A stretch of 64,000 nt of DNA from Candidatus Aenigmatarchaeota archaeon (lineage in GTDB: Archaea; Aenigmatarchaeota; Aenigmatarchaeia; GW2011-AR5). A program made the translations under genes and the position numbers. Under the pieces are notes generated by a model. It was not told the origin of the DNA and made no database searches. It worked only from the letters and a program-made list of their open reading frames with translations. The stretch is from positions 1 through 64,000 of the forward strand of contig JACPJW010000002.1 in NCBI GenBank assembly GCA_016187335.1, read 5' to 3'. Shown in pieces: positions 15,065 to 28,683 of the stretch. How positions within the stretch are numbered: position 1 is the first letter of the stretch; each line of letters begins with the position of its first letter.

Positions 15065-15127
15065 TTTTTGATAGAACTTTTTGTTAAAAAGTTCTTTTTG
15101 ATAGAACTTTTTGTTAAAAAGTTCTAT
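15065..15127. repeat. Family A element, exact 30-nt tandem duplication
   Basis: (TTTTTGATAGAACTTTTTGTTAAAAAGTTC)x2 followed by TAT; overlaps the S17 stop TAG. Confidence 0.95.
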
Positions 15128-17863: not shown

Positions 17864-17954
17864 GTTCTACATCACCTGTCAAAGCGGAAGTGAAATGTCC
17901 GGCTGCCATAACCTGCACCAGAGTTCTTTTCCGATTCCGACATTCCATTCCACC

Positions 17955-18010
17955 TTTTTGATTAAACTTTTTTTTAAAAATTTTTTGATTAAACTTTTCT
18001 GAAAAGTTTA
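17955..18010. repeat. Family A element, imperfect tandem pair
   Basis: TTTTTGATTAAACTTTTTTTTAAAAATT followed by TTTTGATTAAACTTTTCTGAAAAGTTTA; overlaps the S19 stop TAA. Confidence 0.88.
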
Positions 18011-23054: not shown

Positions 23055-25196
23055 TTACCCGTACATGACCTTCAGAAAGGCCTTGTCGCGCACGGCGGAA
23101 TTTTCCTGGGCAGTGAAGCGCAGCGTGTTGAATTCCTGGAGCATGTTCCTGCTTATCTCGCCCTCGACAGGGATGTCGTTGAGCGTGGCCTTTGCGCCCG
23201 CAGGTATTTCAGCCTGTCCGCCGCTTACCCCGCTTAGCGCAGGCAGCGCGAAGCTGAACTCGTTGCTCTGCTCAGTTCTTTCCTTGTATACAACCGTGAC
23301 GCGGACGTCGTAGAAGTTTGACTCCCAGAAGCGCAGTATTCCCGGCGGTTCAGCCCTGACTTTTATTTCTCCTTCAAAATCCTCGCCCACGGGGATGACG
23401 TATGTCCCCCTGTCGGCTTCGCTCCTGAAAACCTCGTCGCTGTCCAGTGAAATCACTAAATCGTTCTTGTTGTTGGTATCCCTTACCTCTAACATAATTT
23501 TTTCCACGCGGGATTTCGGGACATTTATTTTCAGCTCGCTGCCGAGAAATAAACCGGCGGAAACCCTTTTCCTTGCCGATATGTTTTTTTCCTCTATGAC
23601 ATTCTTGACGTCGACGTTGAACTCAAACGTTTTTTCCGCGCCGTCGCCGCCGTTGAGCAGTATAGAAACCGTGTCCGGGGAAAGGTCTATGAGGCCTTCC
23701 TGGTTCTTCGCGTTCAGCGTTGCTATGAATGTTTCCTTCTTGTCCGAGCGGTAAACGTGCTTCACTGTATGGAAAATCTCGCTCAGCGGAAGAGCCTGCG
23801 AAGCGCCGTCGCCGAAATCAAGGCTGCACTGGGTAAGGTGTTTTGACAGATCAGTGCAGTGAGCGGTGAACGTGACTTCCAGAGGCGACGCGCCGCTTTG
23901 CGGAGTTGCGGAAAGAACAGTGTGCGGAGCCCTGCCGACATCGGTTTCTGCGGTTACCTGGATAGTTGTGGGCGTCGGGTCTGTCAGGCCGTCGCTGTTC
24001 GTCGCCCTCAGCTTTGCCTTGAACTGCTGGTCGTCAAGCCTTGTGTTCACGTAAACATGCCTGACTTCCTGCACCTTCTTCGTGTTGAGCAGGGTTTCTT
24101 CATTTCCGTCGCCGAATTCCAGCACGCAAGAAGCAATATCAACAAGCGCGTCGTCGCATTTCGCGACAAAATTGACTTCCAGAGGCGACCTTCCTCTTTT
24201 CGGGAAGGCATCTAAATCTGTCTGAGGGCTTTTATCCAGGCCGGGCGTTACCGTTATCAGCCTTGTCGCGGGAGTGCTGTCCGAAGCCCCTTTGTCGTCT
24301 CTTGCCTTCAGGACAACGGCGCGGATTACGTTGAACTTCGCGGTATTCACATAAGTGTGCATTACGGACTGCGGCGAAGGAACGTTCTTCAATACAGCCG
24401 TTTCCCCGTCGCCGAATTCCAGCTCGCAGCTTGTGACGGAACCATCAGCATCGCTGCATTTCACGATGAAAGTTGTCTGCAGCGGCGATGTCCCCGAAAC
24501 CGGCAAAGCTGTCAGCTCTGTCTGCGGCTCAATATTGACCGAGGAAACGCCGATAGCAGCTATCGCCGGCGTCTGGTCCTGGGCGCCCATGTCGTCCACG
24601 GCGGACAGGGTTGCTATGTAATTTCCTTCTTTCAGGTAAGTATGCTGGACTGTCTGCGGTATCTGTATTTTAGAAAGTATTTGCGTCTTGCCGTCGCCGA
24701 AACTGAGGATACAGCTGGCGATCAGCCCGTCAGGGTCCTGGCACAGCGCTGTGAAAACAGCCGTGAGCGGCGCAATGCCGGATATAGGCGTTGAAGCCAG
24801 AGTAGTCTCGGGCAGCTTGTTCGGTGCCGGAGCAGGAGGCGTGCCTGTGAAGACTATCGTTCCTGTCGTGGTGAATGTTCCCCGCAGGATCCCTGTAAAT
24901 GTTCCGCTGCCCGTGAATGTACCGGAACCCGCGCATGTTCCCGTGCCCGTTATGACTACTGAACCGGGCGTTATCGTTGCCGTAAATGTTCCGCTGCCCG
25001 AAGTCGTGCATGTGCCGGTAATGCTGAACGTTCCCGTGCCGCTGAACACCACCGTGCCTGTGAATGTTCCCGTTGTTGTCACAGGCGGAAAATCAGCCGG
25101 GCTGAATGTCGTGACGCCGATCCTGACGGCAGCGGCTTCGGCAGCTGTGGCCAGAAGAACCAGAATAACGGAAGCCGCGATTATTATTTCAGCCAT
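23055..25196 (-). CDS. Secreted/surface protein with four PKD-like Ig repeats and a Thr/Gly-rich N-terminal region
   Basis: Signal peptide MAEIIIAASVILVLLATAAEA; repeats of the form 'P.SG..PL.V.F...C.D.DG.I.SC.L.FGDG....V.HTY'. Confidence 0.88.
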   Translation of the reverse strand: MAEIIIAASVILVLLATAAEAAAVRIGVTTFSPADFPPVTTTGTFTGTVVFSGTGTFSITGTCTTSGSGTFTATITPGSVVITGTGTCAGSGTFTGSGTFTGILRGTFTTTGTIVFTGTPPAPAPNKLPETTLASTPISGIAPLTAVFTALCQDPDGLIASCILSFGDGKTQILSKIQIPQTVQHTYLKEGNYIATLSAVDDMGAQDQTPAIAAIGVSSVNIEPQTELTALPVSGTSPLQTTFIVKCSDADGSVTSCELEFGDGETAVLKNVPSPQSVMHTYVNTAKFNVIRAVVLKARDDKGASDSTPATRLITVTPGLDKSPQTDLDAFPKRGRSPLEVNFVAKCDDALVDIASCVLEFGDGNEETLLNTKKVQEVRHVYVNTRLDDQQFKAKLRATNSDGLTDPTPTTIQVTAETDVGRAPHTVLSATPQSGASPLEVTFTAHCTDLSKHLTQCSLDFGDGASQALPLSEIFHTVKHVYRSDKKETFIATLNAKNQEGLIDLSPDTVSILLNGGDGAEKTFEFNVDVKNVIEEKNISARKRVSAGLFLGSELKINVPKSRVEKIMLEVRDTNNKNDLVISLDSDEVFRSEADRGTYVIPVGEDFEGEIKVRAEPPGILRFWESNFYDVRVTVVYKERTEQSNEFSFALPALSGVSGGQAEIPAGAKATLNDIPVEGEISRNMLQEFNTLRFTAQENSAVRDKAFLKVMYG

Positions 25197-25238
25197 GTTC
25201 TTTGAAGAAAGAAGCCTTGACCTGGCTCTTGATTTTCC

Positions 25239-25266
25239 TTTTGATCGAACTTTTTGGAAATGTTCA
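25239..25266. repeat. Family A element, one mismatch
   Basis: TTTTGATCGAACTTTTTGGAAATGTTCA. Confidence 0.75.
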
Positions 25267-25361
25267 TTTGTCATTTTCAAGTAAATACACCCCGACAAGA
25301 TAATAGACAAGGCGAAAGGATAAAAAGTCAACGCCGTAATGCGCCCGCCATGCGGGCGTGA

Positions 25362-25808
25362 TTACGAGCCGCGAAGTTCGTCAAGGTATTTTCTAAGCTC
25401 TCCGGTAAGATGTTCTCTCCAGATTACCTTTACGGTTTCTGGAAGTTCCGGCTCAGTGTGTTCATTAGAAATCACGGCATAATTAAAACGGTCGCCGCAA
25501 TACGCTGTCTTCAGAATCCGGTCAAGAGAAAGAGGAGCTGACGGATCCCTGTACTGGTCACTCGGTTGATTTGTCCTCGGGAAACTTCTGTCGGAGATAT
25601 ATAGGCTAAATCTCCGCTGTTGGATTTCACCTAGAGCAGCTTCGTAACTGCCGGCTTCCTGGGAAGCATAGTTGCGGTTATTTAGAACAGCCCTGACAAT
25701 TCTTAACTCGTCACCTTGAAGCCCTACAAGGAGTGCCGACCTTCTTCCAGACGCCGGTGCGTGTATCGCCGGTTTTTGCTCACGCTCCAAGATCATCGAC
25801 ATTGTCAT
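25362..25808 (-). CDS. Stand-alone receiver (CheY-like) domain protein, degenerate
   Basis: ALLVG...VRAVLNNRNYASQEAGSYEAALGEIQQRRFSLYISDRSFP follows the receiver beta1-to-beta3 pattern. Confidence 0.55.
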   Translation of the reverse strand: MTMSMILEREQKPAIHAPASGRRSALLVGLQGDELRIVRAVLNNRNYASQEAGSYEAALGEIQQRRFSLYISDRSFPRTNQPSDQYRDPSAPLSLDRILKTAYCGDRFNYAVISNEHTEPELPETVKVIWREHLTGELRKYLDELRGS

Positions 25809-25901
25809 TGGAACGCATTAAACAGAAAACCTATTTAAAATTAGACTGGATTTTATTTCGTGATTGCAGCGTGATTAGTTCTTTTCCGCCAGCGCTTTTT
25901 C

Positions 25902-25931
25902 TTTTTGATCAAACTTTTTCCTAAAAAGTTT
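25902..25931. repeat. Family A element just downstream of tRNA-Ile
   Basis: TTTTTGATCAAACTTTTT-CCT-AAAAAGTTT. Confidence 0.9.
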
Positions 25932-25943
25932 GAAAGGGCTGGA

Positions 25944-26181
25944 TGGGACGGACCCGATTTTCATGAACTTTCCCTTTTGATTGGACTTTTTGGAAAAGTT
26001 CAATTTGAACGGGCGACCTTCCGATTATCAGTCGGATGCTCTAGTTGCCCCGCCCTTTCCTTGTTTTCTTTCCGTGCATTCTTTTTCTTTCCGTGCATTC
26101 TTTTTCTTTCCGTGCATTCTTTTTCTTTCCGTGCACGCTTTCTTTTCTAAAGAAAGGGTGCCCAGGCTAAGCTACCGTCCC
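25944..26181 (-). tRNA. tRNA-Ile: tRNA-Ile(GAT) with two non-canonical introns: D-loop 19/20 (26045-26161) and T-loop 59/60 (25958-26003)
   Basis: Acceptor GGGACGG/CCGTCCC, anticodon arm TCCGA-CTGATAA-TCGGA, T-arm GCCCG-TTCAAAT-CGGGT. The T-loop intron has a perfect BHB (TTCA/TGAA, AAT bulges); the D-loop intron has a near-BHB. Confidence 0.92.
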
Positions 26182-26289
26182 GCAAGCTTATCTTTCATTC
26201 ACGGGATTTTTAAATAAATAGTATTTTCTCCTAGGGATGAGTAGAAGATGAAAACCTCAGAGAAGTTCGAAGGGCTTTAATTTTCCTTC

Positions 26290-27192: not shown

Positions 27193-27741
27193 ATGCCAGT
27201 AATCGTCATTTCAGGGCAGCCCGGATGCGGCTCGTCTACAACAGCGAAGCTGCTTGCAAAGAAACTGCGCCTGAAACACTTCTCAGTGGGCGACTACAAC
27301 AAAAGTCATGTTAGGAAAGGTAGAGAAACTGAAAAGAGCATAGTAATGTGGAAGACAAGAAAGGGCGCGAGCAAAAAGTTCCATATTGATAGTGACGCCT
27401 TGGCAAAGGAATACGCAAAGAAAGGCAATATCGTCATTGACGGAAAATTGCAGATAAAGCTTGCGAAAGGCTTCTATGATTTTTCCGTCTGGCTCAAGGC
27501 ACCGAAGAAAGTAAGGGCGGAAAGGTACGCAAGGCGGGACAAGATAACGCTGAAGGAAGCTGAAAAGAAACTGAGGGAAAAAGAGAAATTGGAGAGGAAA
27601 AACTGGCTGCGCATATACGGTTTTAACTACTTCAGCCAGCAGGAAGAAGCCGACCTGGTTCTTGACACAGCTGACAAAAAGCCTGAAAAGGTTGTGGAGA
27701 TTATCATCAGAAAGCTAAGGGCTCGTGGTCTAGTGGAATGA
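27193..27741 (+). CDS. cmk: Cytidylate kinase (archaeal type)
   Basis: IVISGQPGCGSST, IVIDGKL, WLKAPKKVRAER, ADLVLDT. Confidence 0.88.
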   Translation: MPVIVISGQPGCGSSTTAKLLAKKLRLKHFSVGDYNKSHVRKGRETEKSIVMWKTRKGASKKFHIDSDALAKEYAKKGNIVIDGKLQIKLAKGFYDFSVWLKAPKKVRAERYARRDKITLKEAEKKLREKEKLERKNWLRIYGFNYFSQQEEADLVLDTADKKPEKVVEIIIRKLRARGLVE

Positions 27742-27790
27742 CGCGGCGTTCGCAACGCCGAGGCCAGGGGTTCGAATCCCCTCGAGTCCA
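27719..27790 (+). tRNA. tRNA-Ala: tRNA-Ala(CGC), intronless
   Basis: GGGCTCG/CGAGTCC with G3:U70, CGGCG-TTCGCAA-CGCCG, AGGGG-TTCGAAT-CCCCT. Confidence 0.95.
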
Positions 27791-28536: not shown

Positions 28537-28681
28537 GGGCTGGTAGATCAACGGAAGATCGCTTGCATGGCAAGAGGAGAAACTGTAATATCCTGAAAAG
28601 GAAATGAGGGTAGAGGGAGAGAAACGTCAGTTTCTTCTCCCCTTGTGCAAGAGGCTTCGGGTTCAAATCCCGACCAGTCCA
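28537..28681 (+). tRNA. tRNA-Ala: tRNA-Ala(GGC) with canonical 37/38 intron (28573-28645)
   Basis: GGGCTGG/CCAGTCC with G3:U70; CTTGC-AT-GGC-A[intron]T-GCAAG; intron stem GAGGAGAAACTG/CAGTTTCTTCTC. Confidence 0.92.
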
Positions 28682-28683
28682 CT

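Follow-up and report, generated by a model that had tools for sequence, protein, structure and literature searches.

The DNA analyzed here (the window, 64 kb in all) is the start of contig C1 of the genome of a groundwater archaeon of the Aenigmatarchaeota (DPANN), a MAG of 1.01 Mb in two contigs, with a GC content of 47% and a completeness of 90.8% (G000). On its minus strand we found a tRNA-Ile gene in three pieces, accompanied by putative flanking signals and by copies of two repeat families dispersed in this genome (A and B). The features are as follows.

26207..26218, minus strand: TATA-box-like promoter element TTTATTTAAAAA, read from the sequence, ending 25 nt upstream of tRNA position 1
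26162..26181, minus strand: exon 1, 20 nt; acceptor 5' strand, U8 A9, D-stem 5' strand, D loop to G18 G19
26045..26161, minus strand: intron 1, 117 nt, in the D loop between G19 and C20 (19/20); bulge-helix-bulge (BHB) scan score 29
26122..26159, minus strand: family B copy at the 5' end of intron 1 (CCCTTTCTTT-loop-AAAGAAAGCGTGCACGGAAAGAA); nhmmer E = 6.6e-12
26064..26135, no strand assigned: perfect tandem array in intron 1, 19-nt unit x 3.8, 100% matches, TRF score 144; repeat family D1
26004..26044, minus strand: exon 2, 41 nt; remaining D arm, anticodon arm with GAU, variable region, T-stem 5' strand, T loop to A59
25958..26003, minus strand: intron 2, 46 nt, in the T loop between A59 and U60 (59/60); BHB scan score 32
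25970..26001, minus strand: family A copy forming the core of intron 2; nhmmer E = 1.1e-8, pattern match at 25975-26000 with 1 mismatch
25944..25957, minus strand: exon 3, 14 nt; U60, T-stem 3' strand, acceptor 3' strand, discriminator A73; no CCA encoded
25878..25933, minus strand: composite 3'-flank element, a family-A-like hairpin (TCAAACTTTTT AGG AAAAAGTTTGA + TCAAAAAG) with, behind it, a tail resembling the 3' module of family B (AAAAAGCGCTGGCGGAAAAGAA)

Joined in order, the three exons form a cloverleaf of 75 nt that ARAGORN recognized as tRNA-Ile(gat) (positions 1 to 75), in agreement with the preliminary description of this DNA, whose proposed excisions (26045-26161, 117 nt, at 19/20, and 25958-26003, 46 nt, at 59/60) proved exact. 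The acceptor stem is perfect (7 bp, GGGACGG/CCGUCCC), the D stem is GCUU/GAGC with the loop AGCCUGGCUA, and the anticodon arm combines the stem UCCGA/UCGGA with the loop CUGAUAA, which contains the anticodon GAU and A37. The variable region is AGGUC, and the T arm consists of the stem GCCCG/CGGGU and the loop UUCAAAU, with A as the discriminator. Read from the sequence, the positions of the standard tertiary pairs are also kept (U8-A14, G15-C48, G18/G19, U54, U55, C56, and A58). Since this product is already complete with two excisions, there was no need to invoke a split, permuted, or three-intron gene.

The gene escapes standard annotation, as had been anticipated. ARAGORN gave no tRNA call at the Ile locus in the unspliced DNA of the window, and excision of intron 1 was required for a call; the Rfam tRNA model matched the Ile gene neither in the window nor genome-wide at an E value of ≤1. 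Two open reading frames (ORFs) of 81 and 78 amino acids lie over the locus on the plus strand, the sort of spurious calls that had been expected there. Default tools detected only two intron-free tRNAs in the whole genome.

As for the flanks, the box at 26207..26218 is the putative promoter of the tRNA-Ile gene, and boxes of the TTTATAAA/TTTAAAAA type are found at equal distance upstream of the orthologs in relatives. On the 3' side, the preliminary description had placed a family A copy 12 nt downstream of the gene. There is a hairpin at this place (25933-25901, an 11-nt inverted repeat, I3, with 100% complementarity), but it is a diverged, family-A-like sequence and starts 10 nt after the gene. 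Elements like this one also directly follow tRNA-Ile in other genera, and the one found here contains a T5 run; it may serve as a terminator.

The standard substrate of the archaeal splicing endonuclease EndA consists of two 3-nt bulges with 4 bp between them, cut after the second bulge nucleotide. Intron 2 is a perfect case. The bases UUCA of the T loop (U54 to A57) pair with a UGAA close to the intron's 3' end, and both bulges read AA|U. The T stem itself (5 bp) serves as the outer helix, and the inner helix has 11 bp (UGAACUUUUCC/GGGAAAGUUCA). The perfect helix-bulge-helix-bulge-helix previously claimed for the T-loop intron was recovered by both the geometry scan and the minimum free energy (MFE) fold. 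Intron 1 has a strict 3-4-3 geometry as well, a feature not mentioned in the preliminary description, with GCCU/GGGC as the central helix, the bulges GG|G and AA|C, and an outer helix of 3 bp, while its inner helix consists of 1 bp, an A.C mismatch at the second position, and then 8 bp. The two introns had been called non-canonical, which holds for their positions but not for their splicing motif, which is of the canonical type and near-canonical even in the D-loop intron.

The MFE fold of the unspliced 238 nt contains the acceptor, anticodon, and T stems together with both intron helices (z = -4.4 versus shuffles), although it draws the intron 1 bulge at the mismatch slightly differently from the BHB model. 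The four GGAAAG-containing repeat units of intron 1 are rival pairing partners for the 5' arm. Each intron shows what is expected of an archaeal BHB tRNA intron, namely, 3-nt bulges around a 4-bp helix, flanking helices, and an excision that restores a canonical tRNA in a genome that encodes EndA and RtcB.

To see whether these motifs could be due to chance, both strands of the whole genome were scanned for the strict BHB geometry, each candidate and each pair of nearby candidates was excised, and ARAGORN was run on the products both with and without its intron option. On the score scale used, about 25,000 of the approximately 5 x 10^8 possible segments reach 26. The real genome yielded 15 tRNAs by single and 5 by double excision, whereas the reversed genome, used as a control with equal candidate numbers, gave one and none, respectively. 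The intron pair of tRNA-Ile was recovered exactly without any prior input, and it was the sole Ile(gat) in the double-excision set. Because the inventory was limited to strict BHB motifs and to no more than two excisions, the counts of intron-bearing tRNAs are lower bounds.

Both introns had been described as repeat derived, with a family A copy inside the T-loop intron and family B in the D-loop intron, and we found the copies in place (25975-26000 by pattern match and 26122-26159). The two families were defined by iterated nhmmer searches of the host genome, which gave 65 copies of family A (consensus AACTTTTCAAAAAAGTTTCATCAAAACGG) and 29 of family B (consensus CCCTTTCTTTTGAAAAGAAAGCGTGCACGGAAAGAAA). 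In a pattern search, family A had 62 copies in this genome, with a strong strand bias (13 in forward and 49 in reverse orientation), 14 in the half-complete genome of another member of the genus (G001), and between 0 and 7 in each of 59 other relatives, with none for a control pattern. A strong BHB motif encloses only about one quarter of the repeat copies; families A and B are mostly free intergenic hairpins. The remaining copies mostly lie just after ORF stop codons or tRNA 3' ends, tRNA-Ile of other genera included, and we infer a role of the free copies at transcript 3' ends. In intron 1, the family B 3' module (TGCACGGAAAGAAAAAGAA in RNA orientation) has been expanded into the tandem array, and a similar duplication is found in another tRNA intron (C2:50155-50222).

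The T-loop intron of tRNA-Ile has a close twin, the T-loop intron of tRNA-Pro(CGG) (C2:104263-104308), to which it is identical at 44 of 46 positions (96%); this tRNA-Pro is also recognized by ARAGORN after excision. Such a value is well above the 70% identity between introns of distinct tRNA genes that is taken to indicate paralogous introns, and families A and B occur in the introns of many tRNAs. At least 14 tRNA T loops of the host genome carry a BHB intron at 59/60 built on family A or B, and at least three D loops have a BHB intron at the site used in tRNA-Ile. The four exon-pairing bases of the homologous family A introns at 59/60 in other tRNAs track the T loop (UGAA with UUCA and CGAA with UUCG), and those of the D-loop introns track the exon (GCCU/GGGC, GCCA/UGGC, and GCUU/GAGC), a correspondence that is partly circular in both sets since the scan required pairing. 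The repeat-derived nature of both introns is borne out by their membership in dispersed families with mostly non-intron copies and by the twin in tRNA-Pro, while the direction and mechanism of copying are inferred.

We looked at orthologs of the gene in 61 relatives. A pattern search with the anticodon arm found it in only five of them, since many orthologs carry introns near the anticodon, and synteny with the NAD kinase gene recovered more. In G001, the one other genome of the same genus, the NAD kinase (78% identical) is directly upstream of tRNA-Ile(GAU), an arrangement shared with the window. Because of large indels, the two loci could not be usefully aligned over their full length with MAFFT and were compared exon by exon. 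The G001 gene (L088) is uninterrupted at both sites and corresponds across both junctions to the predicted spliced product. Exon 1 is identical, and the exons differ solely in two base pairs of the anticodon stem, where U27-A43 is replaced by C-G and C28-G42 by U-A; the stem stays paired in both cases. Such compensatory changes are a signature of selection on a working tRNA in both lineages. The comparison also sets the limits of the insertions. Those of intron 1 are unambiguous and coincide with the cleavage sites predicted from the BHB geometry, while for intron 2 only a low-complexity A run is ambiguous.

Introns of tRNA-Ile are far from constant in this group. The G001 gene has a 30-nt intron at about 31/32 that is missing from the gene of the window, and within the family, orthologs are intron-free in six genomes and have the canonical 37/38 intron in four. 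An intron at about 31/32 appears in one relative besides G001, and one at about 9/10 in a single relative. Two relatives carry an intron at the same D-loop site, both family-B-like but differing in length. The T-loop intron was absent from all of the approximately 15 orthologous Ile genes recovered from relatives, including that of the same genus, and is most simply seen as a recent gain, since no recovered ortholog has one. Both introns are missing from the ortholog of the same genus, as expected of late gains, although for the D-loop intron loss is also possible; its absence from the other member of the genus would fit repeated gain at a favored site and repeated loss alike. A single orthologous gene thus has introns at five different positions in one family and differs in three respects between members of one genus.

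The genome has one detectable EndA gene, which encodes an alpha-type enzyme of 202 amino acids (PF02778 and PF01974, E = 1.5e-27), and its closest relatives are found in MAGs of Aenigmatarchaeota, GW2011_AR5 among them. Compared to the Methanocaldococcus jannaschii enzyme (1a79), it has a 6-amino-acid insert (KKGPKS), at the place where the alpha subunit of Nanoarchaeum equitans (3iey_A) has PKKGKRS. This insert may correspond to the “L3 loop” of Kaneta et al. 2018. The enzyme would act as a homotetramer, with a specificity presumably broadened by the insert. An RtcB ligase (E = 5e-159) and an archaeal CCA-adding enzyme are also encoded.

With these components, splicing of the tRNA-Ile precursor can be predicted. 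A precursor of about 240 nt would be transcribed from the TATA-type promoter and would fold so that each intron shows two 3-nt bulges with a 4-bp helix between them. EndA, of the alpha type and with a short C-terminal insert as in the Nanoarchaeum enzyme, would cut the four bulge sites; RtcB would join the three exons and probably circularize the introns, and the CCA-adding enzyme would complete the 3' end. The introns themselves would not be old fixtures of the gene. A dispersed hairpin repeat underlies each of them (of family B in the D loop and of family A in the T loop), and neither occurs in the ortholog of the same genus.

We consider it very probable that the locus is the single functional tRNA-Ile(GAU) gene of this archaeon, split by two BHB introns. 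A further Ile-GAT gene, which the preliminary description had regarded as a sign of a disrupted pseudogene here, was found neither by blastn with the spliced sequence nor by the excision scan in this 90.8%-complete genome, a result that favors a working gene, as does the tRNA-type selection on the exons seen in the ortholog of the same genus. A tRNA-Ile(UAU) gene is present on the other contig. Two exact-pattern scans of metagenome contigs for other alleles or relatives of the locus gave no match. The contrary reading, a tRNA-Ile inactivated by two insertions of dispersed repeats and neither spliced nor used, would draw on the mostly free, intergenic nature of the family A and B copies, which could make the insertions mere damage, on the perfect 19-nt array as a very recent and unconstrained change within intron 1, and on the missing 9% of the genome, in which a second Ile-GAU gene could lie. 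Yet decoding of AUU and AUC is indispensable and no other Ile-GAU gene was found, both insertions match the BHB geometry exactly, something rarely expected of random insertion, the TATA box is intact, and the exons are undecayed and differ from their same-genus counterpart by the two compensatory stem changes only. Besides, at least 14 tRNA T loops of the genome bear the same kind of intron, which the cell must be able to splice. A pseudogene is accordingly very unlikely.

Nor do we see much chance of an error in the assembly of the MAG, by which repeats would have been misjoined into a tRNA gene. Short-read assembly does tend to have trouble with short dispersed repeats and with perfect tandem arrays such as this one, but a misjoin would not produce two exact BHB motifs with exon-pairing bases fitted to the local exon, the three exons are all collinear and complete, and the same architecture recurs at many loci here and in independent MAGs of relatives. 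The doubt is confined to the copy number of the 19-nt unit, and an artifact on the scale of the gene is highly improbable. Least credible of all is a gene with the D-loop intron as its only intron and a T arm formed in some other way. ARAGORN does report a 76-nt tRNA-Ile(gat) when intron 1 alone is excised, but in this product the T stem is reduced to two or three pairs and the acceptor stem contains a mismatch as well as wobble pairs, which mark the call as an artifact, while the two-intron product has perfect stems and the ortholog of the same genus has an uninterrupted T arm (GCCCG-UUCAAAU-CGGGU).

The two-intron tRNA-Ile gene has counterparts in other archaea. In the Thermoproteales, multi-intron tRNAs with BHB introns at 59/60 and other positions and with similar introns across tRNA genes have reportedly been described, by Sugahara et al. 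in 2008 and Fujishima et al. in 2010. The present gene resembles them in having at least two short, BHB-bounded introns at non-canonical positions, 59/60 included, in sharing introns of more than 70% identity between tRNA genes (here 96%, between Ile and Pro), and in the restriction of insertion sites to BHB-capable places. It differs in its lineage (DPANN Aenigmatarchaeota versus TACK), in its EndA, a single alpha-type protein with a C-terminal insert rather than an (alpha-beta)2 enzyme with the crenarchaeal loop, and in the provenance of the introns, whose cores come from families that are mostly free hairpins behind genes and one of which contains a tandem array. To our knowledge, intron cores derived from mostly free hairpin families have not been reported for Thermoproteales.

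Heavy disruption of tRNA genes is known from ARMAN-2 (Ca. Micrarchaeum) and some other DPANN archaea (Fujishima et al. 2011, PMC3239211; PMC5829648), and alpha4 EndAs with the L3 loop have been linked to such disruption in DPANN (Kaneta et al. 2018, PMC5829648). Neither of these two studies (PMC3239211 and PMC5829648) included Aenigmatarchaeota. Like those archaea, our host has a small genome, with interruptions at varied positions in most of the tRNA genes, an EndA with an extra loop that may widen the substrate range, and a tRNA set that standard tools recover only in part. However, the enzyme of ARMAN-2 is a three-unit epsilon2 form with an L2 loop, in contrast to the 202-amino-acid alpha-type protein with an L3-like insert found here.

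Two further cases concern the turnover of introns. At the tRNA-Thr(GGU) locus of Caldiarchaeum subterraneum, close genomes carry different numbers of introns, at different positions (Sugahara et al. 2012, PMC3293823), and there, as here, the differences between close genomes point to gain within a short time. The Caldiarchaeum element is 1.8 kb long and encodes a recombinase and a scattered tRNA fragment, whereas ours are non-coding hairpin repeats of 30 to 40 nt. A recent Asgard census described repeated intron gains but found no route of arrival. The Asgard cases share with ours D-arm introns missed by standard annotation, repeated recent gains, and BHB-competent sites, but in our genome there is clear evidence of copying from gene to gene and of a repeat family as the likely source. 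In short, archaeal tRNAs with several introns, and with paralogous ones, are already known; what is less familiar is the lineage, the simple alpha-type enzyme, the intron cores from mostly non-intron families, and the tandem array of intron 1.

We would go one step further only with reservation. Families A and B could be living sources of new introns, with the hairpins found behind genes, which may serve there as terminator-like or 3'-end elements, being copied repeatedly into BHB-competent sites of stable RNA genes, a possible though rather doubtful scenario. If it were true, the T-loop intron would have arrived very recently, after the split of the sister species, from or together with the tRNA-Pro(CGG) intron, and the genus would be a natural system in which to catch archaeal intron gain in the act. 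Candidate routes would be reverse splicing by EndA and RtcB followed by copying into DNA, or microhomology-guided recombination. A MITE-type element, which we also considered, is not supported: the elements are hairpins, but against the empty site of G001, intron 1 is a clean 117-nt insertion with no target-site duplication, a finding that speaks against a classical cut-and-paste element. We discarded the idea of a box C/D small RNA in family A, as the UGAUGA-like string is confined to the opposite strand of the consensus and has not been kept in the intron 2 copy.

The locus matters in several ways. For annotation, without this tRNA-Ile(GAU) gene the genome seems devoid of a tRNA for the common AUU and AUC codons; reports of missing tRNAs in DPANN may often reflect failed detection, and such loci may be covered by spurious ORF calls. 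For evolution, the turnover of introns, the 96% twin, and the large pool of free repeats are concrete material on the gain of BHB introns. For enzymology, a lineage is added whose endonuclease, a simple alpha-type protein with a small insert, has to cope with introns of the D loop, the anticodon region, and the T loop. While the kind of gene itself is known, the tRNA-Ile locus shows unusually clearly how fast such introns come and go.

Some observations were made in passing on the surroundings of the gene. ARAGORN with its intron option found a tRNA-Ala(GGC) gene with a 73-nt intron at the canonical position (window positions 28537-28682), 750 nt away from an intron-free tRNA-Ala(CGC) (27719-27790), which is one of only two tRNAs without an intron that were detected genome-wide. 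A family A copy (25235-25265) is situated between an ORF of 148 amino acids (25362-25808, minus strand) and the likely true ATG of the gene for a PKD-domain protein, so that the 758-amino-acid ORF with a TTG start (23055-25331) is probably overextended at its 5' end. A further repeated motif, AATAAGGGAAATGAG, followed by a hairpin (..AGAGAGAAACCGNNAGGTTTCT..) immediately precedes several tRNA genes in each of the two genomes of the genus (L088 at about 1424-1500 in G001, upstream of tRNA-Ile, and C2 near 739050, 176300, and 81000 in G000); the motif is absent upstream of the tRNA-Ile gene of the window.

Other observations concern the repeats. At the 5' end of a tRNA-Met gene, a family A copy (C2:738991-739023) has the same 15 nt of the tRNA 5' exon (ccgaagtggctcagt) on either side of it, as if part of the exon had been duplicated or an insertion had left a footprint. 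Two family A copies enclosed in strong BHB motifs (score of 31 each) lie in rRNA-like sequence (C2:242091-242134 and C2:242551-242600), which suggests rRNA introns built from this repeat. Within the window there is also a perfect tandem of two 30-nt units of family-A-like sequence (15065-15125; TTTTTGATAGAACTTTTTGTTAAAAAGTTC) and a looser array of 13 to 14 nt units of TTTTTGATTAAACT (17954-18002). Finally, free family A copies often directly precede a second small hairpin of the form NNCTTCTCAGAGNN (C2:260746-260800, 661060-661116, 176380-176432, and 81020-81081), and the two together may form a composite 3'-end element.
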